Of a stretch of DNA of 64,000 bases, positions 42,534 through 63,886 are shown piece after piece. A program made the position numbers and the translations under genes. Position 1 is the first letter of the stretch; each line of letters begins with the position of its first letter. The DNA is taken from the IMG/VR virus record IMGVR_UViG_3300042691_038938; one strand, 5' to 3'. A model generated the notes under the pieces. It saw only the letters and a program-made list of their open reading frames with translations, made no database searches and was not told where the DNA came from. The DNA comes from a virus (taxonomy: Duplodnaviria; Caudoviricetes).

Positions 42534-42644
42534 GATGGTTCTTTATTTTTTTTATTTATCTACTACGGAGTCCAGCTACTAATACTAAATAACTAGAGAT
42601 AAAGATAAAAGAAAAGATTGGTAGGCGACAGAGACCCAAACCCT

Positions 42645-43109
42645 TTAAAAAGAACCGCTAAACCTTGATATGCCGCTGCTGCTATAGCCGCCGCTAGTGT
42701 CTAGAGACTGGCTTCTTGAGCCTGAAGAGCGCATTTTTGGCATTCTCTCCCAATCCGCTTTAACCTCTCTAAAATAGTTTTCAACGAAATCATTGGCTCC
42801 TTGAACAAAACCGGTTAGATTAGAGTAGGGCTCAGTCTCCAATAGCTCAAGTAGGTTTTCCCTAGTTCCTTCTACTTTACCGGCATACCACGCATCCTTA
42901 AACGCGTCCAGGATCTCATCCTCACTGTACTGTGAAATATCGACCTTTAAAAAGTCTTCTTTAGTCGGTGAATCCAGGCGTTTGAGGTACCACAGATATG
43001 CGCTCGACGGTTTTTCCGGCTCCTGCTGTCTGCTTTTTTTCCAACCGAACCAGCTCTCGTCCAACCTAGATTGCGAAAAGGATTCAAACGTCTTGATATG
43101 CTTCTTCAT
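42645..43109 (-). CDS. Hypothetical protein with CTS-like N-terminus
   Basis: MKKHIKTFESFSQSRLDE; GATAAATA 43130-43137. Confidence 0.75.
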   Translation of the reverse strand: MKKHIKTFESFSQSRLDESWFGWKKSRQQEPEKPSSAYLWYLKRLDSPTKEDFLKVDISQYSEDEILDAFKDAWYAGKVEGTRENLLELLETEPYSNLTGFVQGANDFVENYFREVKADWERMPKMRSSGSRSQSLDTSGGYSSSGISRFSGSF

Positions 43110-43173
43110 GACTCTCTTCTATTTTTCTTTATTTATCTACTAACGCTGTTCTACTACGGAGTCCAGCACCCGA

Positions 43174-43749
43174 TCAATCGCGGTACCAATCACCTTCCTC
43201 GTCGCCCAGGGCCACCTCTGAATCAAATGACTTGAGCACCTGTACCAGGTCGTCGACAGTGAATATGTTGATCTCGCCGTTATAGATCCACGTGCCGTCA
43301 TAATCAAAGTAGCCATCGTCATCATCGTCATAAGCCGCGTCCTCATGATTCGCATATAGCGCCCTGATCTCGACCGTGCTCTCCACACCAAGTCCAATGA
43401 CTATCAGAGCAGGCTCATCATCAACGACCTGATACGACCAGTCGTTATAGTGAGTTTCAGGCAGGTCTAGAAGACCCGGCGCAACAGTCAGCTCAGCGGC
43501 CTCAAAGCTAGCATATCTCGTCTTCTTCACCCCAAGATACTTATCGGGCTCGGAATTACACAGAGCCTCAAGCTGAGAATAAAACTCGTCGGCCCAACCC
43601 TGTAGGTCAATCTCCTTGATCCCCTTTTCAAACTCTTGCTGGCTAATTAGCCCGAGCCCTAACAGTCGATTAAGGTGACGTTCGGTCTTTTCTCCGCTCT
43701 GTTGAGAGTCCTCGCTCTCCCATACTCTAGATGATTTGATATACTTCAT
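43174..43749 (-). CDS. Acidic protein with CTS-like N-terminus
   Basis: MKYIKSSRVWE; GATAAATA 43771-43778. Confidence 0.75.
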   Translation of the reverse strand: MKYIKSSRVWESEDSQQSGEKTERHLNRLLGLGLISQQEFEKGIKEIDLQGWADEFYSQLEALCNSEPDKYLGVKKTRYASFEAAELTVAPGLLDLPETHYNDWSYQVVDDEPALIVIGLGVESTVEIRALYANHEDAAYDDDDDGYFDYDGTWIYNGEINIFTVDDLVQVLKSFDSEVALGDEEGDWYRD

Positions 43750-43763
43750 GCCACGCTAGTTCT

Positions 43764-44231
43764 TTAGTTATATTTATCAGGTCTCCATACTGGCACGTTT
43801 TCAACTCCATCGGGTATCCTATAACGTTTAGAAAAATGGGGCAGCTCATGCACGATGGACCTAGCGTCAATGCTGTGACCCTTCCTGGAGAGCACGTTCT
43901 CTATGCACTGTTCCGGATCATTGCTAAACCAGATCTCTCTTAAATCGACTCCTTCCAACTCAGCTAGACCCTGCCTAAGCTTCTCCCCTAGACCGATAAG
44001 AGTATAATCCTCAAAGTAGGGAGAGGCCAAGATCACGTGCTCTCCACTCTGCAAGGCTGATACTATCTCTTCAACGCTAGCAGAATCGTCGAAGACTCTC
44101 CACTCAAGATCGCTATCACTAATGATCTCACGTATGAGATGACTCTTACCCGAACCAGGTAGACCGTGTATCCAGACCATTGAAACCTTCGATCTGTTCT
44201 CAAATAATGAATATGATACTATGTGCTTCAT
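43764..44231 (-). CDS. P-loop kinase (PNK/AAA_33-like) with CTS-like N-terminus
   Basis: WIHGLPGSGKS; MKHIVSYSLFE; TATAAATA 44254-44261. Confidence 0.7.
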   Translation of the reverse strand: MKHIVSYSLFENRSKVSMVWIHGLPGSGKSHLIREIISDSDLEWRVFDDSASVEEIVSALQSGEHVILASPYFEDYTLIGLGEKLRQGLAELEGVDLREIWFSNDPEQCIENVLSRKGHSIDARSIVHELPHFSKRYRIPDGVENVPVWRPDKYN

Positions 44232-44529
44232 GCTATAGTTAGTTCTTTAGTTATATTTATACTACGGAGTCCGGCCACCAGTGACCAAGATACCCAGAAA
44301 CCAGGACAAAGAGAAATGGGAAGAGAGTCTCTAGACAGGAGACCCAACATCATAGATAGCCCATGGCCAGGAGCGTAGATCCTAGAGACCAGACACGATA
44401 CCAACGACCTACCGCCAGACCAGCCAAAGGAGCCCAGCTACAGTCGCACCCAGGTAGCCCTTTAGTGAGACGTAATGTGGGAACCACTGCCGACTGGGTC
44501 TACGGAGTCCCATACGGGAAACTCCATGG

Positions 44530-44568
44530 GTGCCACCCTTGTTGCCACGCTTGCTACGTTTGCCATGC
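44530..44568. repeat. Degenerate 9-bp direct repeats
   Basis: GTGCCACCC, then TTGCCACGC TTGCTACGT TTGCCATGC in tandem. Confidence 0.6.
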
Positions 44569-44606
44569 TACTTTCAGTGTGAACCCCTTATGGCAAGCCC
44601 AGGTGT

Positions 44607-44614
44607 GATAAATA
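44607..44614 (+). promoter_or_regulatory. Late-type promoter box GATAAATA
   Basis: 15 nt before ATG 44630. Confidence 0.55.
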
Positions 44615-44629
44615 ATAAGAAAGGGTAAC

Positions 44630-45322
44630 ATGTACGTAAAGGAGGTAATGGCAACCTTGCAATGCAGCTATAACGCCTGCCGCAAGTGGAGGAACGAGGG
44701 TAAGCTAAGGACCACCAAGATGCCCAACGGCAAGGTGATGTACTGGGACGACGACGTCTACGCCCTACTGGGCAAGAAGATCCAGAAGGAGAACTGGTCG
44801 GTCGCCTACTGTAGGGTACCGGGGACTACGGAGTCCGACCGGAGACTCATGCTCCGCCAGCAGCAACTGATCCGGGAGTGGTGTGCCAAGCGTGGAGTGT
44901 CTCTAGAAAAGCTCTACGACGACTGGTGCCCGTCTACTGACTTCTCCATGGACGGGAGACCCGGGTTACATGAGCTCATACAGGATGTCATAAAGAAAAA
45001 GATAAGCGTGATCGTGGTGGAGACCCCGGACAGGCTGGCTCGAGTCGGTTGGGAGATCTTTCCCTCCTGGTTCAAGTATTATGGGGTGGAGGTAATAGTC
45101 ATCAACAGTGCTATAGTGGTGCCAGAGTATCAGCAGGAGCAGGAGAGGGATCTCACGAATCTCTTGTTAAAGGCGGGCGTGGACAGGCTGGATAAGCTAG
45201 GAGCTGAGAGCCTACCGGTACCCAGAAAGCGGGAGAGGCGCAAGCACCCGGGCAAGATCACCCCTGACTGGGAGGACAAGCCAGAGACCCCATCAGATCG
45301 AGACCTGTCAGACCTCATGTAG
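44630..45322 (+). CDS. IS607-type serine recombinase homolog lacking the catalytic Ser
   Basis: N-terminal MerR-like HTH; AYCRVP in place of YARVS; VVETPDRLARVG. Confidence 0.8.
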   Translation: MYVKEVMATLQCSYNACRKWRNEGKLRTTKMPNGKVMYWDDDVYALLGKKIQKENWSVAYCRVPGTTESDRRLMLRQQQLIREWCAKRGVSLEKLYDDWCPSTDFSMDGRPGLHELIQDVIKKKISVIVVETPDRLARVGWEIFPSWFKYYGVEVIVINSAIVVPEYQQEQERDLTNLLLKAGVDRLDKLGAESLPVPRKRERRKHPGKITPDWEDKPETPSDRDLSDLM

Positions 45323-45334
45323 ATAAATATTAGT

Positions 45335-45679
45335 ATGGAAGAAGAATTAAGCCTGTATGGCGCCGGCGTCGAGTGGATCGGCCAGCGTCCCATCAACACG
45401 GTCGGCAACGACTCCCCTGACTGGGAGCTCATGTATGAGCTCTGGCTTAGGGTAAAGGACGAGTCTCCCAAACCGGTCGCGATAGAGAAGACTAGCTTCA
45501 CCGTGACAGCAGTGCAGCGAGTAAGGATCCTGGAGGAACCCGTCGCGGTCGCGCTCTTCTACTCGCTGGACGAGTGGATAGGGGAGGAGGATCCCAGGAA
45601 GGACTTTACCTGGTTCATGGTGGGAGACGGTTTCCTTCGGGAATTGGAGCTCATAAAGGAGTGGGGATTCCGCCTATAA
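45335..45679 (+). CDS. Hypothetical protein
   Basis: GATAAATA 45322-45329 upstream. Confidence 0.7.
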   Translation: MEEELSLYGAGVEWIGQRPINTVGNDSPDWELMYELWLRVKDESPKPVAIEKTSFTVTAVQRVRILEEPVAVALFYSLDEWIGEEDPRKDFTWFMVGDGFLRELELIKEWGFRL

Positions 45680-45701
45680 ATAACTAAAAAATCGAGGAGG
45701 C

Positions 45702-45845
45702 ATGGCAAAGGCGAAAGGGGCTAGCGTTGCCGTGTGGAATCCAAGAGCCAAGACCAAGCGGCCTGGAGTACACGCGAAGTGCAAACGTAGCGCCTCTAAG
45801 AAGAGCAAGAACTGGAAGAAGCCCTATCGCGGACAGGGTCGGTAA
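45702..45845 (+). CDS. 47-aa highly basic peptide (not in ORF track)
   Basis: MAKAKGASVAVWNPRAKTKRPGVHAKCKRSASKKSKNWKKPYRGQGR; TATAAATA 45675-45682 and GAGGAGG upstream. Confidence 0.75.
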   Translation: MAKAKGASVAVWNPRAKTKRPGVHAKCKRSASKKSKNWKKPYRGQGR

Positions 45846-45868
45846 CAGACAACAGTTCTACAGTCTAG

Positions 45869-45895
45869 AAGGGTCTCTTAGGGAGGCCCTTTCTT
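45869..45895 (+). terminator. Probable terminator of the + strand operon
   Basis: AAGGGTCTC-loop-GAGGCCCTT then TCTT. Confidence 0.5.
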
Positions 45896-46044
45896 GCATC
45901 TCATTAGTATCTACCGGTCAGATTAACGAGCCTCGTCCAGGGAAACGGTGTCCCTCTTGGTTGAGCTCCGCGCGCCATGGTAGCCAGGGCTCCCAGAAGT
46001 CTCGGCGGGCAGGGGAACCGGGAGACCCGGCTAGCGGTAGAAAT

Positions 46045-46067
46045 CGGGAGACTCCTCGGGTCTCCCG
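46045..46067. repeat. Perfect inverted pair of the promoter-upstream box
   Basis: CGGGAGAC-N7-GTCTCCCG. Confidence 0.85.
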
Positions 46068-46140
46068 TGTACGGGCACCCGCAGGCGGGTTACGACGCGC
46101 GATACCAGAGACTCCCTACTACGGAGTAAAAGTATGAGCC

Positions 46141-46166
46141 AAAAAAGGGAGCCGTTAAGCTCCCTC
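46141..46166 (-). terminator. Terminator ending the minus-strand array
   Basis: GGGAGC-N6-GCTCCC followed by T6 on -. Confidence 0.75.
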
Positions 46167-46185
46167 TTCTCAAGTCAAACCAACC

Positions 46186-47361
46186 TTACAAGGTCGCGTA
46201 GTCTGCGAACTGTAAGTCATATCCGCTGTTAGCTCCTTTTGCGAAGAGCTGGCCAGCAGCTGCCTTTAATTCGTATTTGTTCTCTAATTCAATTCCCGAG
46301 TTGTTGGATCCCAAGTAGGTCAAGGAGTTCACGACATCCCAGATCGACATGCCCGTTCGGATGAAGCTCTTCTGGCGATCGTTCAGCTTCATTGGGTCCT
46401 GACCCTTTTGCACTATTCTGGCCATGGTATTGTTGTAGCCGTCGAAGTAGTTGCGTTGCACCGCATCGATGAAGTTCTTCTTGAACTGTGGGTCGTCCTC
46501 CTTCACCTTGCGCTGCACGCTTAGCATTGCCTGCTCAACTTCAGTAAGACTCGCTTTAGTGGAGACCGCACGTTCCAATGACTGTTGAAAGCCTAATGGA
46601 ACAAAGTCCGCCTTCTTCATCGCTTCTATGTTGTTAAGGAAGGTACGAATGTCCTCGGCATCTGTGCCTCCTAGACGAAACTTCTCTGCGAAGTTTAGGT
46701 CACGGTTTCCACCGATGGCTCCGCTTCCTAGGCTTACTCGTAACCCATTGGAGCATACTAATCTCTGGTTGTAGGTCTCAATGATGGTGTCACGAGTGGT
46801 CTGCATGATGGAGAAGCCGAACTTAAAGAACTCGTCCTTGCCTGCTCCTGGGAAACCTACCTCGTTTTGATTTAAGAAGTTGATCTCGACCGAGCCGGAG
46901 TAAGGGTTGTGGTCGATGGTCTCTATCATCAGGGAAGGGTGCTCGTTCATGATCTTGCTCGTGATATCGAAGAGCGAGTCGGTGGTCACTCGACGGTAAC
47001 GCTTAGGATCGCAGACGTCGACGATCTCGCGAGTGCTAACGTTCGCTATTAGCAGGACTGAAGCTCCGCCCTGACGCTGACGATAATCGTTTAGTGCGTT
47101 CATCAGTGCTGCAGCAACCTTGCCGTCCTCGTTCTTGATGAACTCTCGAGTAAGGGAGGCGTTCATCTTCATCATGCTCGCTAGCTTGATAAAGAAGTTC
47201 TGAGCCACCTTGACTGGCTGGCCTGACACCTCTATCTGACCCTTAAGGAACGATTGGTCGCTGAGCTTGATCGCTGAGGTAGGCACCTCTTTAGTAGCAA
47301 ACTCGTTGGACACCATCGCCTCGCGAATGGCATCGAATTGTGATTGTGTTACTTCTCTCAT
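46186..47361 (-). CDS. DUF932-like protein
   Basis: YNQRLVCSNGL resembles the DUF932 RxVCxNGL motif. Confidence 0.55.
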   Translation of the reverse strand: MREVTQSQFDAIREAMVSNEFATKEVPTSAIKLSDQSFLKGQIEVSGQPVKVAQNFFIKLASMMKMNASLTREFIKNEDGKVAAALMNALNDYRQRQGGASVLLIANVSTREIVDVCDPKRYRRVTTDSLFDITSKIMNEHPSLMIETIDHNPYSGSVEINFLNQNEVGFPGAGKDEFFKFGFSIMQTTRDTIIETYNQRLVCSNGLRVSLGSGAIGGNRDLNFAEKFRLGGTDAEDIRTFLNNIEAMKKADFVPLGFQQSLERAVSTKASLTEVEQAMLSVQRKVKEDDPQFKKNFIDAVQRNYFDGYNNTMARIVQKGQDPMKLNDRQKSFIRTGMSIWDVVNSLTYLGSNNSGIELENKYELKAAAGQLFAKGANSGYDLQFADYATL

Positions 47362-47426
47362 TGTCTCTTTGTTTTTAGTTGATTTGACTTATTTATATTA
47401 TACTAATTTTCTGGTCTACTTTAAAA
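47362..47426 (-). promoter_or_regulatory. Variant early-type promoter
   Basis: TTTAAA-N17-TATAAT with A-rich leader. Confidence 0.6.
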
Positions 47427-47437
47427 TTTGGGGACGA

Positions 47438-48556
47438 TTAATTTTCGTCGTCCCCTTCGATTTCTACTAGGTCCTGATCCTCCTCTTCTACGGAGTGATC
47501 GTCGAACGTTCTGCCCAAGAAGACCTGCTCAAAGCGTAGGCTCAAGTCCTGCTGACGCAAGGTCTCGACGTTCTCCATTGAGCGTAGCTCCTCGGTCTCA
47601 GCATAGCGTGTAACGTCGTACACCACCTGACCTTCCTCGTTCAGCTTGTAGTAGAGACGTTTGCCCGTACCGCTGCCGCCTCGACGGTTCTTTGAGAACT
47701 CTAGGTAGCGTAGGCCAGTCGAGTCGAAACGGATCTCAACCATTGCCGTAGTTGCATGCTTAAGATATGTAGAACCAACGTACTGCCCTCCCTTCGTCAT
47801 GTGCTGGATGGCCAACACTGCACAGCCGTTCTTCTCTGCCGCATCGATCATCATGTTAGTCATCCACGACTCGGCTTTAGTTGACTTCCAACCATGTACT
47901 TCCTTGAGCTTTACTAACACGTCCTGATAAGAGTCTAAGAGGATGATGTCGTAGTCGCCGTTGAAGGTCTTCTCGAGGACGGGTGCAAGCTGATTAGACT
48001 TCACGTAATCCATGAGCAAGAGTGTGGGCACGCGACCGATGGCAGGGGTCTTACGATAGTAGAACATGATGTCGTTTCTGGTCATCTCGCTGGAGATGTA
48101 TAGGATCCTTGCCTCGGGGTTTTGGTCCACGACAGATGCCAAGAGATCCAGCATGACAGTTGACTTACCGACGCCTGACTCGCCGATGACGATGTTCACA
48201 GTACCGCCGTAGATACCGCCACCTTCCTCATGGTCTGAGAAGAGATCGTCGATCTTTTTGCCTGTACGGAAGAGACCGAAGTTAGGGAACTCCATGTCCT
48301 CCACCCTTACTATCTGAGGCTCTACTACGGAGTGAACTGATGCAGTATGTTCGCTGCGTTCGTAGTGACCCTCGGCCACGATCTTCTTGATGACTCCATT
48401 GAAGAGCCCGTATGAGATCTCCTCGGGCCTTTCACCCGCGTCGAATTCCTGGAACAGGTCCAGTACCTTTGAGCGAGTCGGCACGACTCCTTCGTAAGCG
48501 TCATTAAACCACTGTCTAACGATTTGCTCCTTCTTTCCTCCTGTGATTTCAATCAT
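47438..48556 (-). CDS. RadA/Sms-like RecA-fold ATPase
   Basis: GESGVGKST, LYISSE, ILLDSYQ, QHMTKGGQYVG, KNRRGG; no Zn finger or Lon-like domain. Confidence 0.75.
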   Translation of the reverse strand: MIEITGGKKEQIVRQWFNDAYEGVVPTRSKVLDLFQEFDAGERPEEISYGLFNGVIKKIVAEGHYERSEHTASVHSVVEPQIVRVEDMEFPNFGLFRTGKKIDDLFSDHEEGGGIYGGTVNIVIGESGVGKSTVMLDLLASVVDQNPEARILYISSEMTRNDIMFYYRKTPAIGRVPTLLLMDYVKSNQLAPVLEKTFNGDYDIILLDSYQDVLVKLKEVHGWKSTKAESWMTNMMIDAAEKNGCAVLAIQHMTKGGQYVGSTYLKHATTAMVEIRFDSTGLRYLEFSKNRRGGSGTGKRLYYKLNEEGQVVYDVTRYAETEELRSMENVETLRQQDLSLRFEQVFLGRTFDDHSVEEEDQDLVEIEGDDEN

Positions 48557-48621: not shown

Positions 48622-49047
48622 TTATTGCGATAAATCTTTCAGTCTCTGAAGTTCTTCCGCTGTGAAGTTCTGAAGTCCTTTAGCTTGCACCAAGTCTAGC
48701 AACTCGTCGAGACTCATGGTACACTTCTTCTTGACGTTACCGAATTCCCTGTCCCACTCCGCGCTCATGGGTTTGAAGTGCTCAAAGAAACCCTCACTTA
48801 GGTTGGCAGAGGCCTGATCGCCCTCGACCCACACGATGATTGGTAACTGATCCTCCATTTCGGCCTCAACCTCCTTAAAGATCTGCACGATCTGTGCGGG
48901 ACTCTTGTCAGTACCGATGATTGATATGACACCAAACGGAGAACCTGCTCCCACAGAGGTCTCTCTACACCCGATACGTTCGATTGCTTGTTGGTCACCT
49001 TGAGTTGGAATTGGCATTCCGAACCTGATTAAAAATACTTTTTTCAT
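48622..49047 (-). CDS. Hypothetical protein with DUF6576-like C-terminal motif
   Basis: LDELLDLVQAKGLQNFTAEELQRL. Confidence 0.65.
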   Translation of the reverse strand: MKKVFLIRFGMPIPTQGDQQAIERIGCRETSVGAGSPFGVISIIGTDKSPAQIVQIFKEVEAEMEDQLPIIVWVEGDQASANLSEGFFEHFKPMSAEWDREFGNVKKKCTMSLDELLDLVQAKGLQNFTAEELQRLKDLSQ

Positions 49048-49131
49048 CTGCTTTTGTTTTTAAGTTTATATAGTAAATATACTACTAAAGAACCCAAATG
49101 TACAATCCTGGCGTGAGTAAATTCGGGAGAC
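49048..49131 (-). promoter_or_regulatory. Repeated early-type promoter element 1
   Basis: GTCTCCCG...AGGATTGTACA-N17-TATATTTAC...TTAAAAACAAAAG. Confidence 0.85.
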
Positions 49132-49171
49132 GCGACCTGCCTGGACTAGCTCCATTACTACGGAGTAAAAC

Positions 49172-49200
49172 AAAAAAGCCAGCCTCTTGCGAAGCTGGCC
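49172..49200 (-). terminator. Rho-independent terminator
   Basis: GCCAGC-N10-GCTGGC plus T6 on -. Confidence 0.75.
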
Positions 49201-49225
49201 GACCCGGAAAAGCAGGAACCTAGGT

Positions 49226-49411
49226 CTAATTACTTATCTGAACTCCAACAGTCTGCCACTGTGTTATGGTGTACTCAAAGCCTTCCTCTTCGGGCATGGC
49301 CATCTTTAATCTCTCTCTGACATCAAGCGCTCTGGCAACCGTAGTTATCGATCTCTTATCAGTGGAGAAGTAATGCTTCCCATCCTTGCTTACGTTTATC
49401 TCGTACCACAT
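49226..49411 (-). CDS. Hypothetical protein
   Basis: 61 aa, coupled to upstream gene. Confidence 0.7.
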   Translation of the reverse strand: MWYEINVSKDGKHYFSTDKRSITTVARALDVRERLKMAMPEEEGFEYTITQWQTVGVQISN

Positions 49412-49416
49412 GTCTC

Positions 49417-49848: not shown

Positions 49849-49933
49849 GCTGCTTTTGTTTTTAAGTTTATATAGTAAATATACTAAGATTCTTGTGACT
49901 TGTACAATCCAGTGGACCTAAAAGTCGGGAGAC
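49849..49933 (-). promoter_or_regulatory. Repeated early-type promoter element 2
   Basis: Same consensus; spacer identical to elements 3 and 4. Confidence 0.85.
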
Positions 49934-49941
49934 GGTGCCGC

Positions 49942-50257: not shown

Positions 50258-50283
50258 GTTATTCCTCTTCCGTTACATGGTTT

Positions 50284-55849: not shown

Positions 55850-55868
55850 CCTGTATAACAGCACAAAG

Positions 55869-55889: not shown

Positions 55890-55896
55890 GTGTTTC

Positions 55897-56364: not shown

Positions 56365-56447
56365 GCTGCTTTCGTTTTTAAGTTATAGTTAAATATAATC
56401 ATTAAGTCTGAATCTTAACAATCCGGTAGCGAAAACTTTTAAGAGAC
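56365..56447 (-). promoter_or_regulatory. Repeated early-type promoter element 11
   Basis: GTCTC box overlaps the stop of 56439-56828. Confidence 0.8.
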
Positions 56448-56828: not shown

Positions 56829-56844
56829 TTCTTCTTGTTTTAGG

Positions 56845-57090
56845 TTATGAAAATCTTAAAAATTCTACTGATCCTGTATGGATGAACGCAATCGATCCGT
56901 CTCCGAACTGGATGCCGATTGTGTGTTCGTCGGCTGAACAGACGGTCACGTCGATCTCGTCTCCTTTCGCGAAGGCCTCCTCGACCGGTTTGTGTAGCTC
57001 GATATCCTCGTTCTCAAAGACCTCAATGAGAGTGTCTCCTAAGAACATGAATACTACGTCGTCCCCTTCTTCAAAGTCTTGTGTTTTCAT
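56845..57090 (-). CDS. Acidic hypothetical protein
   Basis: 81 aa. Confidence 0.7.
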   Translation of the reverse strand: MKTQDFEEGDDVVFMFLGDTLIEVFENEDIELHKPVEEAFAKGDEIDVTVCSADEHTIGIQFGDGSIAFIHTGSVEFLRFS

Positions 57091-57172
57091 GCTTTTAAGT
57101 TTTTAAGTTATAGTTAAATATAATACTAATCTTTGAGTCGTGAAAATTGGGCGGCGACAAAAGTAGGGAGAC
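57091..57172 (-). promoter_or_regulatory. Repeated early-type promoter element 12
   Basis: Same consensus, divergent -35. Confidence 0.8.
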
Positions 57173-57189
57173 GCGTCGCCCAGACCGGA

Positions 57190-57534
57190 TCAGACTTGAT
57201 CTAGGACGAGGTCGATGAATTTTTGAAAGTCGTCTTTCTCTAGGTCATCAAAGGAGACGGGAGCCTCGATCAAGGCTTGCATCATTAGACGAGCTTCTTC
57301 CTCAGTATTCGCAGCGACTGGGAAAGGCGTAGCATCCCAAAAGAACTGAATGAGCCCTTCCTCATAGATGCTGATTATCGGCGGACACGCTTCGTCAGGA
57401 AAATCGATAATGGGTTCGTAACAAGTAAAGTGGCCAAACTCCTCGTTCTCACATCCCTCATCCTCCCTAGAATCAAAGGTTTGAACGAGCTTGATTCCAA
57501 ATAATTCTTCTACTTTTTCTTTTACTTCTTGCAT
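57190..57534 (-). CDS. Acidic hypothetical protein
   Basis: 114 aa. Confidence 0.7.
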   Translation of the reverse strand: MQEVKEKVEELFGIKLVQTFDSREDEGCENEEFGHFTCYEPIIDFPDEACPPIISIYEEGLIQFFWDATPFPVAANTEEEARLMMQALIEAPVSFDDLEKDDFQKFIDLVLDQV

Positions 57535-57614
57535 CTTTTTGTTTTTAAGTTATAGTTAAATATAACAACTATTCTCCAATCTATAAAATCCTGGTTTGGG
57601 AAAAGTCGGGAGAC
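57535..57614 (-). promoter_or_regulatory. Repeated early-type promoter element 13
   Basis: Same consensus. Confidence 0.85.
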
Positions 57615-57644
57615 TCTTTTGACAGGTCTTGACAGAGCACAAAG

Positions 57645-57670
57645 AAAAAGGGACCGATTTCTCGATCCCC
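57645..57670 (-). terminator. Rho-independent terminator
   Basis: GGGATCGA-GAAA-TCGGTCCC plus T-tract on -. Confidence 0.7.
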
Positions 57671-57713
57671 GTTCCTACAACTTAAAACAACTTCTTTGTT
57701 ACTACGGAGTAAA

Positions 57714-57965
57714 CTATTTAAGTCCCTTTGCCCCGTTGTATATCTTCTCTGCCTTTGTATAATCGTACTCAGCAGCTATTAGTGCTCCTATCTCCTGGGA
57801 GAAATTGGTCCTAAAGAATTTTAGATTCTCCGGAGTGTCGTTCACGTAGGGCACCATCTCGTGCAGGACGGGTAACCTCTCCTTTAGACTCAGTCTCTTG
57901 AGGTACTGTCTTACCGTGTCCTGTGCCCCGACCTTGATCAGGTTTATCGCTTTGTCCACTCTCAT
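57714..57965 (-). CDS. Hypothetical protein
   Basis: ATGA overlap. Confidence 0.65.
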   Translation of the reverse strand: MRVDKAINLIKVGAQDTVRQYLKRLSLKERLPVLHEMVPYVNDTPENLKFFRTNFSQEIGALIAAEYDYTKAEKIYNGAKGLK

Positions 57966-58276
57966 GCTACGTATCCTTGGTTATAGACTAAGTATACATA
58001 AAATCGGATGGCGTTTAAATTGATTGAGTCGGCTCTTCCCACTGTCTCCATCAAGTTGTTATCGACTATCGCCTGCACAAAGCTTCCGCCTGGAAATCCC
58101 ACTCCCCACTTGGTGCTCAGTATGGAGACGCCGATCCTAGTGACGTGTTCTCTACTTTCGTTGAACGCTATCGCCTGTCCAAATGCGAGGTCGTGTCCCC
58201 ACGAGTAATACTCATCGATTCGCTTGGAAACGACCTCTGCTATTCTCTCCTCTTGTCCTTCAGTGTATGCTGCCAT
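57962..58276 (-). CDS. Conserved phage hypothetical protein
   Basis: PGGSFVQAIVDNNL...VGRADSIN. Confidence 0.7.
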   Translation of the reverse strand: MAAYTEGQEERIAEVVSKRIDEYYSWGHDLAFGQAIAFNESREHVTRIGVSILSTKWGVGFPGGSFVQAIVDNNLMETVGRADSINLNAIRFYVYLVYNQGYVA

Positions 58277-58335
58277 CTTTTTTGTTTTAAGTTATATAGT
58301 AAATATACTAAATTCTCTAGTGCTTGTACAATCCT
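58277..58335 (-). promoter_or_regulatory. Repeated early-type promoter element 14 (no GAGAC box)
   Basis: -35, -10 and leader conserved. Confidence 0.8.
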
Positions 58336-58696
58336 AGCGTAAACTCTTTAAGAAATCTTTGTCGACTCTGTGGAGTTCTATCTCTGCAATCTGGAGACCG
58401 TCAAACCCCATTCCTATTAGAGCCTGCTTAAATGGTACCCATACGTTCTCTTTGTGTGGTACGCCGCTTGCATATCCATGATAATCTCTCGTGCCCCATA
58501 CGGCAACGACTGCCTTGGCTCTTCGTACCAATTTAACGGGGTCTTTGATGAGCTTAGACTGCTTCTCAGCTAGACTCTGGATAGGCGAGCCATTACCATA
58601 AAACCAGTTTCGCATGCCGTGTTTGTAGAAGTCCATCTCCAGTGCACGGTGATAGTCCTTTGTTTGAGGTTCAATTGATGTTACCTGTAAATTCAT
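58334..58696 (-). CDS. Hypothetical protein
   Basis: Start moved to MNLQVTS after the promoter leader. Confidence 0.7.
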   Translation of the reverse strand: MNLQVTSIEPQTKDYHRALEMDFYKHGMRNWFYGNGSPIQSLAEKQSKLIKDPVKLVRRAKAVVAVWGTRDYHGYASGVPHKENVWVPFKQALIGMGFDGLQIAEIELHRVDKDFLKSLR

Positions 58697-58777
58697 TGTG
58701 CTTGTTTTTAAGTTATAAGTAAATGTAATAATAATAACTGATAATGTACAATTAGTCGGCCCTAAAAGCCGAGAGAC
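58697..58777 (-). promoter_or_regulatory. Repeated early-type promoter element 15
   Basis: Same consensus. Confidence 0.8.
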
Positions 58778-58792
58778 GCTGGGATACTGGGC

Positions 58793-58819
58793 AAAAAAAG
58801 ATCCCGATTTCTCGGGATC
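58793..58819 (-). terminator. Rho-independent terminator
   Basis: GATCCCGA-GAAA-TCGGGATC plus T7 on -. Confidence 0.8.
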
Positions 58820-58829
58820 AAATTGAGTC

Positions 58830-59321
58830 TTATAATGGCGGACCTCCGAACCACCATCTACCTCGTTGATATGTTTCACAAGGACCAAGTCGATCTCGAA
58901 TCTCTTGAGTACATTTTGGATTGTTTAGCACGTAATAGCGAATCGCATCGTTCTTCTCATGGCTTAGGATCTCAAGAAGGTTCTCTGGGATCTCCTCATT
59001 TTTTGCGAGCATACGTTTGACGTCGGGCCGATCGTTAATGAGATTGGCTAGGACGTCCGCTGGAGTCGACGGATTTCCTGCGACTCTTGATCGAATCACA
59101 CTGCTTCGATCCTTCGAAAGCTTTCGTAAGACGTCGCTTGGACACGTTCGGTTTTTGGCAACGATATCCTTGAAAGTGGTCGAGCTCAATGACTCCAATG
59201 CCATTGGGTCGGATGTCGTCTCCGCGATGGTGCTTAACCGTACACCCTTGTCGATCGAGGTCAATGTACGATCTCTTTTGATTTTTTTAATTTGGTCTAA
59301 GACGCTCATGTTTTCTTGCAT
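58830..59321 (-). CDS. Leucine-rich-variant (LRV/HEAT-like) repeat protein
   Basis: VAKNRTCPSDVL, VAGNPSTPADVL, LAKNEEIPENLL, VLNNPKC. Confidence 0.75.
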   Translation of the reverse strand: MQENMSVLDQIKKIKRDRTLTSIDKGVRLSTIAETTSDPMALESLSSTTFKDIVAKNRTCPSDVLRKLSKDRSSVIRSRVAGNPSTPADVLANLINDRPDVKRMLAKNEEIPENLLEILSHEKNDAIRYYVLNNPKCTQEIRDRLGPCETYQRGRWWFGGPPL

Positions 59322-59404
59322 AGCTTTTAAGCTTTTAAGTTATGTATAAATATAACAATAATAACGAGTAATGTACAATCCTGGCCGAAAGACTTTTGGG
59401 AGAC
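59322..59404 (-). promoter_or_regulatory. Repeated early-type promoter element 16
   Basis: Same consensus. Confidence 0.85.
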
Positions 59405-59412
59405 CTGTAGAT

Positions 59413-59943
59413 CTATTTCACAAAGAGCGTGCAATTGGTGTAAGGAAAGGAATGTTCTCCAAGCTTTACCTCAAGCTCCTCGAGGTCGAACCCCATCTCC
59501 TCACAAACAGAAGATATTGTCTCAGGACTAGCTTCATTTGGAACCTGGAACCCGCTCACCTTAAGAAACTTGAGAGCTGCATCTAGCCTAGCTTGCTCCT
59601 CATTAAGGGACTCAACGGTCGTCACCATCGATGCGGTGCCTAGGGGCAGGCTAGAGTAGCGGTTTGCCAGTATCGCAACTGAGAAAGTCTCCGTCTCATC
59701 AGGAACGGTAGGAACTTCAGCTCCCTCAAGGAAATTGAGAAGATCACCTACTTTCTCGACGTCCTCTAATTCTTCAGGAATCTTTACTCCAAACTTTTTC
59801 TCGAGCTTTATGATTACCTCGACGATGTCCAATGCATCCATTCTAAGATCGTCCATTAGGCTCGTGTTCTCGTCGATCTCAGCGCACACTGCATACTCCT
59901 CAACGTGAAGTCTAATTATCTCAAATACTTTTTCTTTTAACAT
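59413..59943 (-). CDS. Acyl-carrier-protein-like domain (Ser to Ala) fused to an unknown domain
   Basis: EKVFEII...DDLRMDALDIVEVIIKLEKKFGVKIPEE...KVGDL. Confidence 0.8.
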   Translation of the reverse strand: MLKEKVFEIIRLHVEEYAVCAEIDENTSLMDDLRMDALDIVEVIIKLEKKFGVKIPEELEDVEKVGDLLNFLEGAEVPTVPDETETFSVAILANRYSSLPLGTASMVTTVESLNEEQARLDAALKFLKVSGFQVPNEASPETISSVCEEMGFDLEELEVKLGEHSFPYTNCTLFVK

Positions 59944-60024
59944 GGTGGTAGGTTTTAAGTTATAAGTAAATATAACTACGATCCCTGAATAAGTACAATC
60001 CTGTGATGGGTAAATTCAGGAGAC
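59944..60024 (-). promoter_or_regulatory. Repeated early-type promoter element 17
   Basis: Same consensus. Confidence 0.85.
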
Positions 60025-60068
60025 CAGTTGGATCCAGTCTTGATCCAACGTACTACGGAGTAAACGAC

Positions 60069-60091
60069 AAAGGGTCAGCTCCCGCTGACCC
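60069..60091 (-). terminator. Repeated terminator module A
   Basis: GGGTCAGC-GGGA-GCTGACCC-TTTG. Confidence 0.75.
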
Positions 60092-60115
60092 CAGTCTCTA
60101 ACCTAAAACAACTTC

Positions 60116-60310
60116 TTAATATTCGCCTTTGTCGTATTCCTTTTTCAAGAGTTCAACGATCATTTCTCTCTCCTCCTCTAACATTCTGTTGTTGGCGAAG
60201 GAAACTAGGATGTCGGCAACGGTTAGCCCATGTTCTCCTGAGTCTACCATTCCTACTAGGATTTCTCCAAGGACGTCGTTTCGTGTTGATTCGTTTGCTG
60301 ATTTTTCCAT
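60116..60310 (-). CDS. Hypothetical protein
   Basis: 64 aa ending EY-stop. Confidence 0.65.
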   Translation of the reverse strand: MEKSANESTRNDVLGEILVGMVDSGEHGLTVADILVSFANNRMLEEEREMIVELLKKEYDKGEY

Positions 60311-60318
60311 GGGTTCTA

Positions 60319-60708
60319 TTATTTAAAGAGTGCAATTATCTTATTCTCAAGCTCACGATCGAACGCGATATCATTATTACAATCGTCATCGAACTCGTGA
60401 CTAACACATCCCGCTAAGAGGTCGAGAGCGTTTGATTCCATCTCCACTCCTTCCTCGTCCTCCCACTCGAAGTTGAAGAAGTCTCTAGAATCTCCATGCA
60501 CCACCACATCGATGGTCCCATCCTCGCGTACCCTCCATGCAGGATAGTGACTATTAAGAACGAACTCTAGTGCTTCAGCCTCAGCATCACTCTCGCACTG
60601 CTCTTCCCAATTGGCAATGAAGCTATTGACATGATTGGTGATGGCAACGTACAGTGCACTGTCGATCTTCTCTACCTCATTGTCGTTAAGAAACCTTTGA
60701 TTTGTCAT
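60319..60708 (-). CDS. Acidic hypothetical protein
   Basis: 129 aa. Confidence 0.7.
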   Translation of the reverse strand: MTNQRFLNDNEVEKIDSALYVAITNHVNSFIANWEEQCESDAEAEALEFVLNSHYPAWRVREDGTIDVVVHGDSRDFFNFEWEDEEGVEMESNALDLLAGCVSHEFDDDCNNDIAFDRELENKIIALFK

Positions 60709-60790
60709 AGTGTTTAAGTTTTAAGTTATAAGTAAATATAACAAATGCTTTCAAATAAGTACAATCCTGTGCTCAGCAAATTTGGGAGAC
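60709..60790 (-). promoter_or_regulatory. Repeated early-type promoter element 18
   Basis: Same consensus. Confidence 0.85.
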
Positions 60791-60822
60791 ACTCAGGCTT
60801 GAAGTTGAAAGGAGTTGAAACG

Positions 60823-60845
60823 AAAAAGCGGAGATTTCTCTCCGC
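60823..60845 (-). terminator. Rho-independent terminator
   Basis: GCGGAGA-GAAA-TCTCCGC plus T5 on -. Confidence 0.75.
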
Positions 60846-60850
60846 CTCGA

Positions 60851-61375
60851 CTATCCTATCTTGCTCGCTATCTGCCTCACCTTGTTGACGTAATCGGGAT
60901 CCCCTGCGTAATTCTTTTTGAGGTACTGCAAGTATTCTTCTCTCGTCTTACACTTTTTCGTGTAGGCAGCCTGGAAGAGCGCGTAGTCCATGACGCTATG
61001 CTGCCACGACTCGTACTTTGCGTGACCCTTGTATTCTCCTATCGCGGTCGTGGGTCGCTGCCTTGCCACCTTCATGCCGAAGAGGTTATTACCGTTCCTA
61101 AAGATGTTAGAGGTGAATCGCCCAGTCTCGACTATTGCTTGAGCGTAGACGATGTCATAGTACTTGACTCTCATCTCCTTCAGGGTCTCTAGAAGCTTTT
61201 CCTTGCTGAAGCTCGGATCGACTGGTTTTACGGGTTCTACTCGAGCGACTCTCTCTAACTTGAGACCCGATACTTCAGGTTTCTTTAAGAACGACAGCGA
61301 GATGATGAGTCCAAAGCAGACTCCGGTAAATCCATAAAGCAATCTTTTAAACGGTTCCATGTTTACTGTTTCCAT
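60851..61375 (-). CDS. Membrane-anchored GH73-like glucosaminidase
   Basis: TM LLYGFTGVCFGLIISLSFL; AQAIVETG, NNLFGMK, YAGDPDY; start moved to METVNM. Confidence 0.8.
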   Translation of the reverse strand: METVNMEPFKRLLYGFTGVCFGLIISLSFLKKPEVSGLKLERVARVEPVKPVDPSFSKEKLLETLKEMRVKYYDIVYAQAIVETGRFTSNIFRNGNNLFGMKVARQRPTTAIGEYKGHAKYESWQHSVMDYALFQAAYTKKCKTREEYLQYLKKNYAGDPDYVNKVRQIASKIG

Positions 61376-61456
61376 CTTTTTTGTTTTTAAGTTATGGTTA
61401 AATATAACCATTATCTTTGGATAAGTACAATCCTAGTTGCAGAAAAACTGGGAGAC
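61376..61456 (-). promoter_or_regulatory. Repeated early-type promoter element 19
   Basis: Same consensus. Confidence 0.85.
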
Positions 61457-61565
61457 TCGTCTGCTACAGGAATTCGGCTTCCCTACTTTGAGCTCGGGGC
61501 GCCATGGCACATGGGCTCTCTCGGAGTCTCAGCGGGCAGGGGCTCGGCTCTACGGAGTAAACGAC

Positions 61566-61588
61566 AAAGGGCCAGCTCTCGCTGACCC
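61566..61588 (-). terminator. Repeated terminator module B
   Basis: GGGTCAGC-GAGA-GCTGGCCC-TTTG. Confidence 0.75.
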
Positions 61589-61613
61589 CTCGTCTCTAAC
61601 CTAAAACAACTTC

Positions 61614-62006
61614 TTAATATTCCTCTTCCTCGTCGTAGTCCTCTTCTTCTCCTTTCGTATCAATCTCTATCTCACCGATCCGGATTATTCCGTCTTCCTC
61701 GCTAGTTTCAAAGTCCTCCTCAAAATCAAAGGTGTTTCCTAACGTAATTTCCAAGTGTCCCTCTGTTATATCATCGACTAGCACACAACCGATCGATCCC
61801 GAATCTACTGGATACCCGTTACCGTGCTGATCGGGATACACTCCGTCTCCGTAAGCGGTCCCATAGATCGCGAACTTGGTCCCATCCTTAAGCTCAAACT
61901 CTCCGTCCAAACAGTTGTGGTCCACGATGATGAGGTCACACACCTCAGTCCAACGGTCTCCCAAAACATAGCATAGGTCTCCAACATAATACTTGCCTGC
62001 TTTCAT
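61614..62006 (-). CDS. Conserved phage hypothetical protein
   Basis: YYVGDLCYV...GTAYGDG...VDSGSIG. Confidence 0.75.
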   Translation of the reverse strand: MKAGKYYVGDLCYVLGDRWTEVCDLIIVDHNCLDGEFELKDGTKFAIYGTAYGDGVYPDQHGNGYPVDSGSIGCVLVDDITEGHLEITLGNTFDFEEDFETSEEDGIIRIGEIEIDTKGEEEDYDEEEEY

Positions 62007-62089
62007 ACTCTTTTAGTTTTTAAGTTATAGTTAAATATAATCATTTCTTTCTAATCTTGACAATCCTGCATCGGATAAAGTCGGGAGAC
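62007..62089 (-). promoter_or_regulatory. Repeated early-type promoter element 20
   Basis: Same consensus. Confidence 0.85.
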
Positions 62090-62122
62090 CTGCTCCCATT
62101 CTTCTACTACGGAGTAAACGAC

Positions 62123-62145
62123 AAAGGGTCAGCTCCCGCTGACCC
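62123..62145 (-). terminator. Repeated terminator module C
   Basis: Identical to module A. Confidence 0.75.
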
Positions 62146-62151
62146 CAGTCT

Positions 62152-62256
62152 CTAACTCAATATGAATCTGATTATGTTTCCGATAATGATGAACGATCCC
62201 AATAGGATCAGGATCGCCCACATGATTTGCTCGAATAACTCGCTTCCTCTTCTCAT
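62152..62256 (-). CDS. 34-aa membrane peptide (not in ORF track)
   Basis: MRRGSELFEQIMWAILILLGSFIIIGNIIRFILS. Confidence 0.5.
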   Translation of the reverse strand: MRRGSELFEQIMWAILILLGSFIIIGNIIRFILS

Positions 62257-62260
62257 GACT

Positions 62261-62515
62261 CTATAGGTTTGAGAGGAAGATTTCCTGGTTCACTGAAACG
62301 CTTCTCCACGACTGTTTCTCAAGATCGAAGAAGGTGACCTGCCGAGGAGAGCTCTCTCGCACTCCCTTAGGGTGGTGGTCGCTAGGAATGGTGGTAAGGT
62401 TGGTCGTACCTACCGCGGTACGCAAGGTCCCGTCTAGTTTCTTGAATGCGAACTGCACTGCTCCGCTTCTCAATCTCTGACGCAATACTTCTGGTGAAAT
62501 CGGCTCTAATACCAT
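62261..62515 (-). CDS. SH3-like beta-barrel (WYL_2/DUF2693-like) protein
   Basis: FAFKKLDGTLRTAVGT...FFDLEKQSWRSV. Confidence 0.75.
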   Translation of the reverse strand: MVLEPISPEVLRQRLRSGAVQFAFKKLDGTLRTAVGTTNLTTIPSDHHPKGVRESSPRQVTFFDLEKQSWRSVSVNQEIFLSNL

Positions 62516-62608
62516 GTCTTTTATGTTTTTAAGTTATAGTTAAATATAACCATTATTCGTTAAAAGTAAAAATCCTGTGTAAAAATTTTTCGCCTAAAAT
62601 CAGGAGAC
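62516..62608 (-). promoter_or_regulatory. Repeated early-type promoter element 21 (box shifted by 10 nt)
   Basis: GAGAC at 61 nt rather than 51; box encodes V-S-stop of the upstream gene. Confidence 0.8.
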
Positions 62609-62887
62609 CCGGCCGTGCTTGGCTTTAACGTAAGCCCTCGCGTTTTGAGCAGTAATGTGAGCGTCATTGCATACTCGAAACTCAATACCTTCTTGGCTGG
62701 TGTACACCCACTCGGTCGTGGGATCGAACTCTGGCCCGGTTGAGTGGGAAAAGTTAAATACCATTGAGTTACCAGTCTTGGCTGAGACTACCTCGTACTG
62801 GGTATCAAACTGGACATCCTTTTCTGAAACTTTGATAATCCCTGTTTCAACTGAAAATCTTACCTCTTTAAGGTTTACTCTCTTCAT
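62600..62887 (-). CDS. Hypothetical protein
   Basis: Start moved to MKRVNLKE. Confidence 0.7.
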   Translation of the reverse strand: MKRVNLKEVRFSVETGIIKVSEKDVQFDTQYEVVSAKTGNSMVFNFSHSTGPEFDPTTEWVYTSQEGIEFRVCNDAHITAQNARAYVKAKHGRVS

Positions 62888-62968
62888 TCTTCTTGTTTTT
62901 AAGTTATGTATAAATATAACCATTATACTTGAATAAGTACAATCTTCTTTACGATAAAGTCGGGAGAC
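62888..62968 (-). promoter_or_regulatory. Repeated early-type promoter element 22
   Basis: Same consensus. Confidence 0.85.
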
Positions 62969-62996
62969 ACGCCCGATCGAGCCAAGATTACCAAAC

Positions 62997-63020
62997 AAAA
63001 AAAGCCAGCGTAAGCTGGCT
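62997..63020 (-). terminator. Rho-independent terminator
   Basis: GCCAGC-TTAC-GCTGGC plus T7 on -. Confidence 0.75.
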
Positions 63021-63040
63021 CTCCATTAAACTGTGACTGA

Positions 63041-63301
63041 TTATGACTTGACTATCTTATAAGTGATACACTCATTATCCTCGTCGAACTCATGATTCTC
63101 ATCTGAGAGGGTGTACCCCATCTTTTCCAAAGCATCTAAGACCGGTTCGTTAACACAATCGTTAGCGTTCTCAGCAGCGGCTTCTAAGTCTAGCCTCCAT
63201 CTCTTACGACTGTCCCACTCACTCGACTCATAATAGACTACCATCTTAGTAAAATCATCAGTGATCGTTCCGGTGCAATTAAAACCGATTTCCATTTCCA
63301 T
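63041..63301 (-). CDS. Acidic hypothetical protein
   Basis: Start moved to MEMEIGF. Confidence 0.7.
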   Translation of the reverse strand: MEMEIGFNCTGTITDDFTKMVVYYESSEWDSRKRWRLDLEAAAENANDCVNEPVLDALEKMGYTLSDENHEFDEDNECITYKIVKS

Positions 63302-63382
63302 GTTGTTTGTTTTTAAGTTATAGTTAAATATAACCATTATTCTTCAGTCTTGACAATATTGTCTTGATTAAAATCAGGAGAC
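63302..63382 (-). promoter_or_regulatory. Repeated early-type promoter element 23
   Basis: Box and -35 lie inside the end of 63337-63513. Confidence 0.8.
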
Positions 63383-63513
63383 AGGAACATGGCTAGCCTA
63401 GCGGGAATCACCACCGTCATGTTACATGAGTCACAACATCGACCCGAGTTTACGGGCTCAGCATTGTTTGACCGATTCTCTTGAATTGACTCTTTACAGA
63501 TTGAACATTTCAT
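63337..63513 (-). CDS. Small Zn-finger protein
   Basis: CSIC...NNAEPV...CCDSCN; start moved to MKCSIC. Confidence 0.7.
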   Translation of the reverse strand: MKCSICKESIQENRSNNAEPVNSGRCCDSCNMTVVIPARLAMFLSPDFNQDNIVKTEE

Positions 63514-63529
63514 CTCTTTTGTTTTTAGG

Positions 63530-63760
63530 TTAAAGTAAATTCCAAATATCCTGTGTCGCGTCGTAGACAAAGATGTCTCCGGCATGTCCGTCCTTGAACA
63601 CTAGTGAGGTTCCCTTCTTCTCTATCACGTAGCGAATGCCTAGGTCCTCCTTGATGTCTCTCTTGGCAGAGGCGATTGAGATTCTGGATAATTCCGCCCA
63701 CATGTCGATTAGAGAATCGTGAGCGCTTGAGTGCTCCTTCTTAAGATCAGTTAGATTCAT
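63530..63760 (-). CDS. Hypothetical protein
   Basis: 76 aa directly after promoter. Confidence 0.7.
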   Translation of the reverse strand: MNLTDLKKEHSSAHDSLIDMWAELSRISIASAKRDIKEDLGIRYVIEKKGTSLVFKDGHAGDIFVYDATQDIWNLL

Positions 63761-63842
63761 GTCTTTAAGTTTTTAAGTTATAAGTAAATATAACAATAAT
63801 AATCTTTACTTTAAAATCCTGGCCTAATAAAAATTGGGAGAC
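63761..63842 (-). promoter_or_regulatory. Repeated early-type promoter element 24
   Basis: Same consensus. Confidence 0.85.
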
Positions 63843-63886
63843 CCGTTGGATCCAGCATTGATCCAACTTACTACGGAGTAAACAAC

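Follow-up and report, generated by a model that had tools for sequence, protein, structure and literature searches.

What reads a short DNA word that a phage repeats many times, always in the same direction and only in one region of its genome? The question is raised by a 64,000-nucleotide stretch of a Caudoviricetes genome (IMG/VR record IMGVR_UViG_3300042691_038938; this whole stretch is "the window" below), in which the 9-mer CTACGGAGT is found in 16 exact copies, all on the + strand at 42563-63871, with none elsewhere and none on the - strand. By chance about 0.37 copies would be expected, and the highest count in 100 shuffles was 2. A sequence-only reading of this DNA had described 16 copies in 21 kb, all on +, with the first 42 kb free of them, and the exact count over the 64 kb bears this out; the sites it listed are real, some being off by an immaterial 1-3 bases (44825, 48322), and their contexts (after terminator T-tracts, near promoters, inside coding sequence) were found as stated. 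It had further proposed a binding or loading site tied to chromosome direction rather than transcription. Our results favour a DNA-level, transcription-independent site, but not the tie to chromosome direction, and they point to an adjacent gene which that reading had missed, encoding a serine-less homologue of the IS607-family transposase TnpA, as the best candidate for the reader of the site.

The word is held to its exact form, as only two one-mismatch variants occur in the window versus approximately 10 expected. The full 10-mer, ACTACGGAGT, is carried by 12 of the 16 copies; on the minus strand the full site reads ACTCC[G/C]TAGT, a near-palindrome with an asymmetric centre, so that in the sense of minus-strand genes the word is ACTCCGTAG, with T as the tenth base in those 12 copies. 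In the site form ACTCCGTAGT, the changes C4A and T7G give the "flipped" centre, while G6C is the variant at position 6. These two substitutions suffice to invert a site because its outer ACT/AGT and central CG are palindromic. The position weight matrix of the sites, KK-ACTCC[G/C]TAGT-MV, has weak flank preferences, which are symmetric, and base-pair covariation is absent from the flanks, where Watson-Crick pairing is no greater than expected by chance. The pattern therefore fits a protein site on duplex DNA rather than a hairpin, and a hairpin or RNA-stem reading of the word was rejected.

Several of the window copies lie within a repeated cassette, after terminator T-tracts and before early promoters (46119, 49158, 60053, 61550, 62107, and 63871), and three abut late-type promoter boxes such as TAGATAAATA (42563, 43154, and 44262); others are solitary in coding DNA. 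Cassettes composed of terminator, site, GTCTC box and promoter recur at 49-64 kb and in the related loci G1, G4, and L090, and the word is also found outside them. That the copies might be only parts of larger duplications, as the earlier reading had allowed, is contradicted by the stand-alone copies in coding DNA and by the cassette itself, of which the 9-mer is the sole invariant part.

Relatives were found by scanning IMG/VR for a 14-mer that includes the word and then searching whole records for the pattern, and further loci were collected with an alignment of the neighbouring ATPase. The genome-wide count and strand map that the sequence-only reading had called for could thus be run on complete and near-complete relatives, in which the word is one-stranded and regionally confined. 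Contigs G001-G004 (100-128 kb) have 14-17 copies each, on one strand only and within 19-27 kb, with 0-1 hits for a reversed control word. A sister clade uses ACTCCCTAGT, some of its genomes mixing the G and C forms, and its complete or near-complete genomes (253-271 kb) have the word 10-13 times, always on one strand and within 8-11 kb; the complete 271-kb genome G006 (IMGVR_UViG_3300033992_001502) has 10 copies on one strand and 0 on the other, within 8.2 kb. The site region amounts to 3-10% of the phage genome, and over 24 non-redundant genomes, 258 of 259 sites share the single orientation of their genome.

The confinement follows the organization of the genes. From 1 to 47.4 kb of the window, ATAAATA boxes stand 22-35 nt before gene starts, including those of the portal, tail-fibre-like, class A (42.1-44.2 kb), TnpA-like (recombinase-like), and DUF932-like genes, and from 48.6 to 64 kb these give way to TAnnTTT[AG] boxes 30-35 nt before gene starts, including that of a sigma-70-family gene; nearly all genes at 46-64 kb are on the minus strand. 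The site cluster coincides with the sole early-promoter array plus the adjoining junction in G1, G3, G4, and G006, and overlaps it only partially in G2. At the junction lies a module that is conserved universally: a RecA-fold ATPase, a DUF932-like protein and, convergent with them, an IS607 TnpA-type protein of 200-230 amino acids.

Selection acts on the nucleotides of the word, as judged from four genome pairs with flanks 73-97% identical: 24 of 25 aligned sites are unchanged versus 9.5 expected from flank identity, and the G or C at position 6 is preserved site by site. Over the 24 genomes, 51% of the sites are intergenic compared with a 20% intergenic share of the spanned DNA, the remainder being in coding DNA on either strand. 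Sites in the ATPase gene fall in a hypervariable linker and a hypervariable C-terminal tail, at shifting alignment columns, and encode HSVV, DSVV, NSVA, or DSLV (TTES in G3); the protein therefore tolerates the word and does not require it.

What, then, fixes the direction of the sites? In the window, G1, G2, G4, and most other loci, the early, sigma, ATPase, and DUF932-like genes bear the word in sense and the TnpA-like gene bears it in antisense, and 30 of the 31 related loci have it in sense with respect to both early genes and ATPase gene. In G3, all 16 sites are inverted although the genome runs collinear with G2 for more than 100 kb, both in the module and in a distant 40-kb block; 10 of the 16 are antisense to the homologous early array. 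L206 is a second lineage with inverted sites, and there is no orientation switch across the dense junction array. The conserved property is therefore the orientation of the sites among themselves and not an axis of the chromosome, and the proposed tie to chromosome direction falls; the roles in DNA entry and partition offered along with it found no support. The claim that orientation is kept in the + strand gene at 44826, independently of transcription, stands, since it holds on both coding strands and the sites are antisense in G3. As a cause of the inversion, a 4-residue insertion in the DNA-binding wing of the G3 protein was considered and rejected, P0017 having the insertion together with the usual orientation.

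From the inversion in G3 and L206 it follows that sense-strand RNA, promoter/terminator, strict stoperator, and gene-order-fixed roles are excluded. An action at the RNA level, as a processing site, an antitermination or pause signal, or a promoter/terminator element of early transcripts, would suit the sense-strand placement in those 30 loci and the frequent positions past terminators or near start codons. Against it are the antisense copies in G3, the inverted set of L206 and the antisense copies in the TnpA-like gene, together with the absence of flank covariation, of a second promoter element at a fixed distance and of an Rfam match; the RNA reading is largely refuted by G3, and we give it very little credence. 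A promoter reading was rejected for the same lack of a second element in the position weight matrix and the antisense sites in G3, and readings of the word or array as CsrA/GGA, RegB/GGAG, or ops/RfaH elements or as collagen-like coding sequence were dropped, as strand logic or gene calls did not fit them.

A polar, exact word that is invariant across divergent phages could also be a host word of the Chi or KOPS type, copied by the phage to manipulate a host DNA motor or nuclease. The TAnnTTT[AG] box and the lack of Shine-Dalgarno sequences resemble Bacteroidota promoters, and such a host is presumed; the phage sigma factor gives no clue to it. In 301 genomes of the phylum of a metagenome-assembled genome titled Bacteroidetes (G011), to which the host is only presumed to belong, counts of the 10-mer are 0-7 per strand, lower than those of the reversed control. 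As the word is rare there, it is not a Chi/KOPS-type word of that phylum; its limitation to 3-10% of the phage genome and its inversion in G3 also speak against such an origin, which the sequence-only reading had raised by analogy and which we hold to be highly doubtful.

The remaining question is which protein might recognize the site, and here the junction offers a candidate. The TnpA-like protein of the window (230 residues) has the architecture of the IS607 family, a winged-helix/MerR-like N-terminal domain followed by a serine-recombinase domain: its AlphaFold model has an H-H-E-E-H succession over residues 1-50 (the winged helix) and then the core, which Foldseek matches to the catalytic domain of ISC1926 TnpA (6dgc; 1.7 Å root mean square deviation, E 6e-9) and also to 3lhk and 3ilx. 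It further matches PHROG 6620 and Pfam Resolvase, and NCBIfam NF033518 at 89 bits, under the cut-off of 110. A proline, however, aligns to the catalytic serine of 3lhk. The nucleophile column is P/A/G/N/D in 15 of 16 homologues, while both arginines of the active-site DRLxR element are invariant. In IS607 itself, the S72G change at the nucleophile serine of the YxRVS motif inactivates the protein and abolishes transposition (PMC6188088).

The gene and the word co-occur strictly in the related loci. No locus that extends far enough lacks the TnpA-like gene; it is syntenic and convergent with the DUF932-like and ATPase genes in all 30 loci with no mobility evident, and its neighbour is a DUF932-like gene (391 codons) and not tnpB. 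Directly repeated copies of the word lie upstream of it in all lineages. A profile search of 1.8 billion proteins gave approximately 44 representatives at E<1e-30, among which members with and without the serine form a continuum with canonical YxRVS[ST]xxQK transposases. Eight more distant homologues had readable contigs, and in seven of them the same 9-mer stands next to the gene or upstream of it, in 2-8 copies, on contigs of which several are merely 1.4-2.7 kb long. The box GATAAATA, of the late ATAAATA type, lies 22 nt before the ATG of the gene, and we believe that the protein is probably domesticated and expressed late.

The precedent for such a reader comes from IS607 TnpA, which nucleates cooperatively on multiple directly repeated 9-bp motifs, spreads in a sequence-neutral manner and pairs two DNA ends in parallel (PMC6188088). 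On this basis we favour, with a confidence somewhat short of even, the view that the word is a double-stranded DNA docking site for a domesticated TnpA-like protein that bridges or silences the early region. The protein would be made once the late genes are on, would nucleate at the dense group of sites upstream of its own gene and at the dispersed ones through the early array and, by analogy with IS607 TnpA, would coat, bridge or compact the early region. Such action would silence or insulate the early array in a region-specific way; other candidate outcomes are insulation at the boundaries of units, compaction, and pairing of genome copies. Bridging and spreading would explain the regional confinement, the uniform relative orientation and the indifference to transcription direction, and parallel pairing would explain why only the orientation among sites is conserved. 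Regional silencing of the early array, one of the suggestions of the sequence-only reading, is thus the part of it that we would keep, with the sites confined to that array and the mechanism argued from analogy. A bolder picture is conceivable, and we offer it more tentatively: a family of freshwater jumbo phages of about 250-270 kb may have turned a catalytically dead transposase into an architectural protein, and a "frozen" 10-bp word may zip, compact or silence the early region in a chromatin-like manner, with the pairing derived from a transposition synapse.

Several points weigh against the docking of a TnpA-like protein. The link between protein and site is contextual, drawn as it is from adjacency, co-occurrence and family precedent. 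The word is near-invariant while the putative DNA-binding domain diverges to approximately 30% identity, although many sites could freeze a word despite divergence of the domain. The motifs of IS1535 are 10-11 bp apart within 60 bp, compared with 57-58 bp in the arrays here and about 1-1.5 kb elsewhere. Late timing of the gene is read solely from its T4-type promoter box, one distant homologue (P0023, L292) has no copy of the word, and in the sister clade the site cluster falls short of the whole early array.

These points leave some room for another phage or host factor, such as a stoperator-like repressor, a roadblock or an insulator at the boundaries of early units, the TnpA-like gene then being a mere neighbour. 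Such a factor would fit the many copies directly past terminator T-tracts and before early or late promoters, the match of the cluster to the early array, and an invariant word beside a divergent domain, and there is a precedent in the L5-type repressors, which bind 20-30 asymmetric 13-bp sites dispersed over the genome (PMC6550527). Stoperators track transcription, however, and the sites here do not (G3, L206, the TnpA-like gene, and the class A genes); no second DNA-binding gene with so strict a co-occurrence was found, and the short contigs of distant TnpA-like homologues still have the word beside the gene. We regard a different reader as unlikely.

The sites could also serve as crossover or pairing points at which early-gene cassettes are exchanged, within and between co-infecting relatives, in an integron-like or PeSL-like manner, one orientation keeping the exchanges collinear. 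The region is indeed hyperplastic, many of its early genes having no homologue in close relatives; sites stand in repeated terminator-promoter cassettes like the PeSL elements of T4-type phages (PMC2839356, PMC4122927); a recombinase-family gene adjoins, site-specific recombination would maintain polarity automatically, and the word is common to very divergent phages. The sequence-only reading had proposed to look for recombination breakpoints at the motif, and in genome pairs of 87-92% identity, the ends of BLAST segments do not coincide with sites. Genes are gained and lost without flanking sites, sites inside conserved genes cannot come from cassette insertion, and the nucleophile serine is absent in nearly all homologues, as noted above. 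Twenty-four DNA sequencing runs that contain the phage were found, with no RNA run listed, and in four of them the contig joints lie at repeated promoter elements. Cassette exchange is, in our judgement, improbable.

Finally, the junction itself could be an origin of replication, with the sites as iteron-like initiator or helicase-loading elements on which the adjacent RecA-fold ATPase and DUF932-like protein would act. The GC-rich non-coding stretch just upstream of the TnpA-like gene has 2-6 sites (3-6 in relatives), and junction sites are often 57-58 bp apart in many genomes (25 such pairs), with unconserved spacers. A dense direct-repeat array with this fixed spacing in a non-coding stretch, next to an AAA_25/RadA/DnaB-like ATPase, recalls plasmid and phage origins, which use same-orientation iterons. 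Most copies, however, are too widely dispersed for an origin (8-27 kb), the change of orientation between the two sides of the array that a fork-related skew would bring is missing, and the array DNA is GC-rich and shows no obvious AT-rich unwinding element, which makes an origin quite improbable. The docking of a TnpA-like protein remains the reading that we prefer, and the features on which it draws are collected in the table.

Table. Positions of the site copies and of the associated features in the window.
Feature	Position	Strand	Context
Site copy 1	42563-42571	+	10-mer from 42562; abuts late-type box TAGATAAATA of minus-strand gene 42159-42533
Site copy 2	43154-43162	+	Upstream of late-type promoter of gene 42645-43109
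Site copy 3	44262-44270	+	Edge of non-coding junction; abuts TATAAATA of gene 43764-44231
Site copy 4	44500-44508	+	Non-coding junction, 130 bp upstream of TnpA-like gene
Site copy 5	44826-44834	+	Within + strand TnpA-like gene (codons TTES), beside lost nucleophile position
Site copy 6	46119-46127	+	Immediately past terminator of DUF932-like gene
Site copy 7	47488-47496	+	ATPase gene (-), hypervariable C-terminal tail; sense frame xAC TCC GTA G
Site copy 8	48325-48333	+	ATPase gene (-), hypervariable linker (HSVV)
Site copy 9	49158-49166	+	Terminator on one side, early promoter on the other
Site copy 10	50845-50853	+	Close upstream of early promoter
Site copy 11	54034-54042	+	2 nt before ATG of gene 53714-54031; place also occupied in G1, G2, G4
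Site copy 12	57702-57710	+	Intergenic
Site copy 13	60053-60061	+	Terminator/site/promoter cassette
Site copy 14	61550-61558	+	Past terminator, then conserved GC-rich element
Site copy 15	62107-62115	+	Terminator/site/promoter cassette
Site copy 16	63871-63879	+	Terminator/site/promoter cassette; cluster may continue beyond window end
GC-rich non-coding junction	44232-44629		Upstream of TnpA-like gene; clustered sites
IS607-type serine-transposase homologue, 230 aa (best candidate reader)	44630-45322	+	N-terminal winged-helix domain and recombinase core; Pro at nucleophile Ser position
DUF932-like gene, 391 aa	46186-47361	-	Conserved module member
RecA-fold ATPase (AAA_25/RadA-like)	47438-48556	-	Conserved module member; two sites
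Early small-gene array	48622-64000	-	TAnnTTT[AG] box 30-35 nt before each start; coextensive with most of site cluster
Phage sigma-70-family factor	54192-54905	-	Within site-bearing region; bears site in sister clade

The phage that carries these features encodes, within the window, a T4-type portal, a split family-B polymerase, a primase and a helicase, the closest relatives of the portal being those of huge uncultured phages and Lak phages (30-38% identity). Megablast of the window at 42-64 kb gave no match among GenBank phages, and tblastn with the TnpA-like and ATPase proteins gave no cultured relative with the module. In the window, no tRNAs or Rfam families were found, and no immunity repressor or integrase was seen.

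Around the module the composition changes: the G+C content is 0.50-0.53 at 44001-48000 against approximately 0.40-0.44 elsewhere, and inverted GGGAGAC/GTCTCCC repeats lie at 45990-46080. Downstream of the TnpA-like gene, an open reading frame of 47 codons (45704-45847, +) encodes a very basic peptide (MAKAKGASVAVWNPRAKTKRPGVHAKCKRSASKKSKNWKKPYRGQGR), with its own TATAAATA box in front and a terminator behind; the peptide could be a small DNA- or RNA-binding protein.

The early array has further repeated elements near the sites. On the minus strand at 49-64 kb, a second box, GTCTCCCGA, stands between site and early promoter (e.g., 49100-49125, 60000-60020, and 62075-62090), and this box varies between relatives, being GTCTCTA in G1 and G4 and GCTCGCTCT in L090, with the 9-mer invariant throughout. 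Another conserved element, GC-rich and about 70 nt long, CC[C/G]TGCCCGYYGRG ... CCATGG ... AGCYCAA, often begins a few bases past a site copy; it is found on the minus strand at 61450-61541 and 45940-46013 and in G1, G4, L152, L155, and L090 (3-4 copies). It has no Rfam match and may be a small structured RNA or a site for another protein. L090 has a tRNA-like sequence (GGTTCTGTAGCTCAGCTGGATAGAGCAACTGCC...) at 10440-10480 in its early region, behind a site copy and the GC-rich element.

Other repetitive words were met in the relatives. L163 and L164 (IMGVR_UViG_3300009185_000123 and IMGVR_UViG_3300027736_000027) have, in approximately 20 kb, 26-29 same-strand copies of GAGTTTACC(TG) and 19 of GGCTGTAC, a strongly polar word set that is probably promoter-linked. 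G006 is highly repetitive at about 170-180 kb, with 10-mers such as CTTCTGGAAC occurring 100 times on one strand and a 10-kb bin having no called start of an open reading frame; this stretch is probably one giant repeat-rich gene.

How does the system compare with those already known? The nearest to it in mode of action would be the end-binding of IS607 TnpA and the stoperators of L5. The motifs of IS607-family TnpA proteins (IS1535, IS607, and ISC1926; PMC6188088, PMC4058570) are likewise 9-10 bp long, in one orientation and beside a gene for a winged-helix and serine-recombinase protein. In contrast to them, the phage protein has no nucleophile serine, a fixed syntenic place, no tnpB and no transposon ends, and the sites, rather than being 10-11 bp apart, are 57-58 bp or kilobases apart, over 8-27 kb plus the array. 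The stoperators of cluster A mycobacteriophages (L5 gp71; PMC6550527, PMC9283540) share with the sites their number (tens), their asymmetry and approximate size (13-14 bp versus 10-14 bp here), a location mostly in short intergenic gaps, a strong strand bias, and conservation as a set with a binding protein, which here is a candidate. Stoperators are genome-wide, follow transcription in both arms and serve the monomeric immunity repressor of a temperate phage, whereas the sites described here are confined to one region, indifferent to transcription (G3 and L206), near-palindromic, and found in a T4-like, apparently lytic jumbo phage.

PeSLs come close in another respect, as they too are modules of terminator and early promoter that punctuate hyperplastic early regions, and about half of the window copies stand within cassettes of this kind. 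PeSLs are, however, 50-100-bp substrates of homologous recombination without an invariant polar word, while here the 9-10-mer is the only invariant part, and it is found on its own in coding DNA and ahead of late promoters as well, surviving the divergence of cassettes. With matS/MatP, parS/ParB, KOPS/FtsK, Chi/RecBCD, and Ter/Tus, the system shares a short word repeated over a defined region and a single reader protein (here a candidate); KOPS, Chi, and Ter are polar like the word, unlike the palindromic matS and parS. KOPS and Chi follow replication in their skew, reverse at ori or dif and abound in the host, in contrast to a word that is uniform, phage-specific and rare in the sampled candidate-host phylum. 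In essence, this is probably a set of oriented binding sites, scattered along the DNA and read by a domesticated transposase.

If this is true, it would be a clear case of a transposase that has become a regional genome organizer or regulator in a virus, through a simple code in which a single 10-bp word is matched with a single small protein, and the sites would join stoperators and PeSLs as a third class of sites scattered in phage genomes, one that is limited to a region, uniformly oriented and indifferent to transcription. A relative orientation that is conserved without a fixed external reference is unusual, and it points to a pairing or filament mechanism. The system would also give a handle on early-gene switch-off or compartmentalization in large lytic phages. 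For this uncultured family of freshwater jumbo phages, in which 10-17 exact copies of the word run in the same direction and are confined to the early-gene region, the word offers a practical means of recognizing the family and of delimiting its early region.

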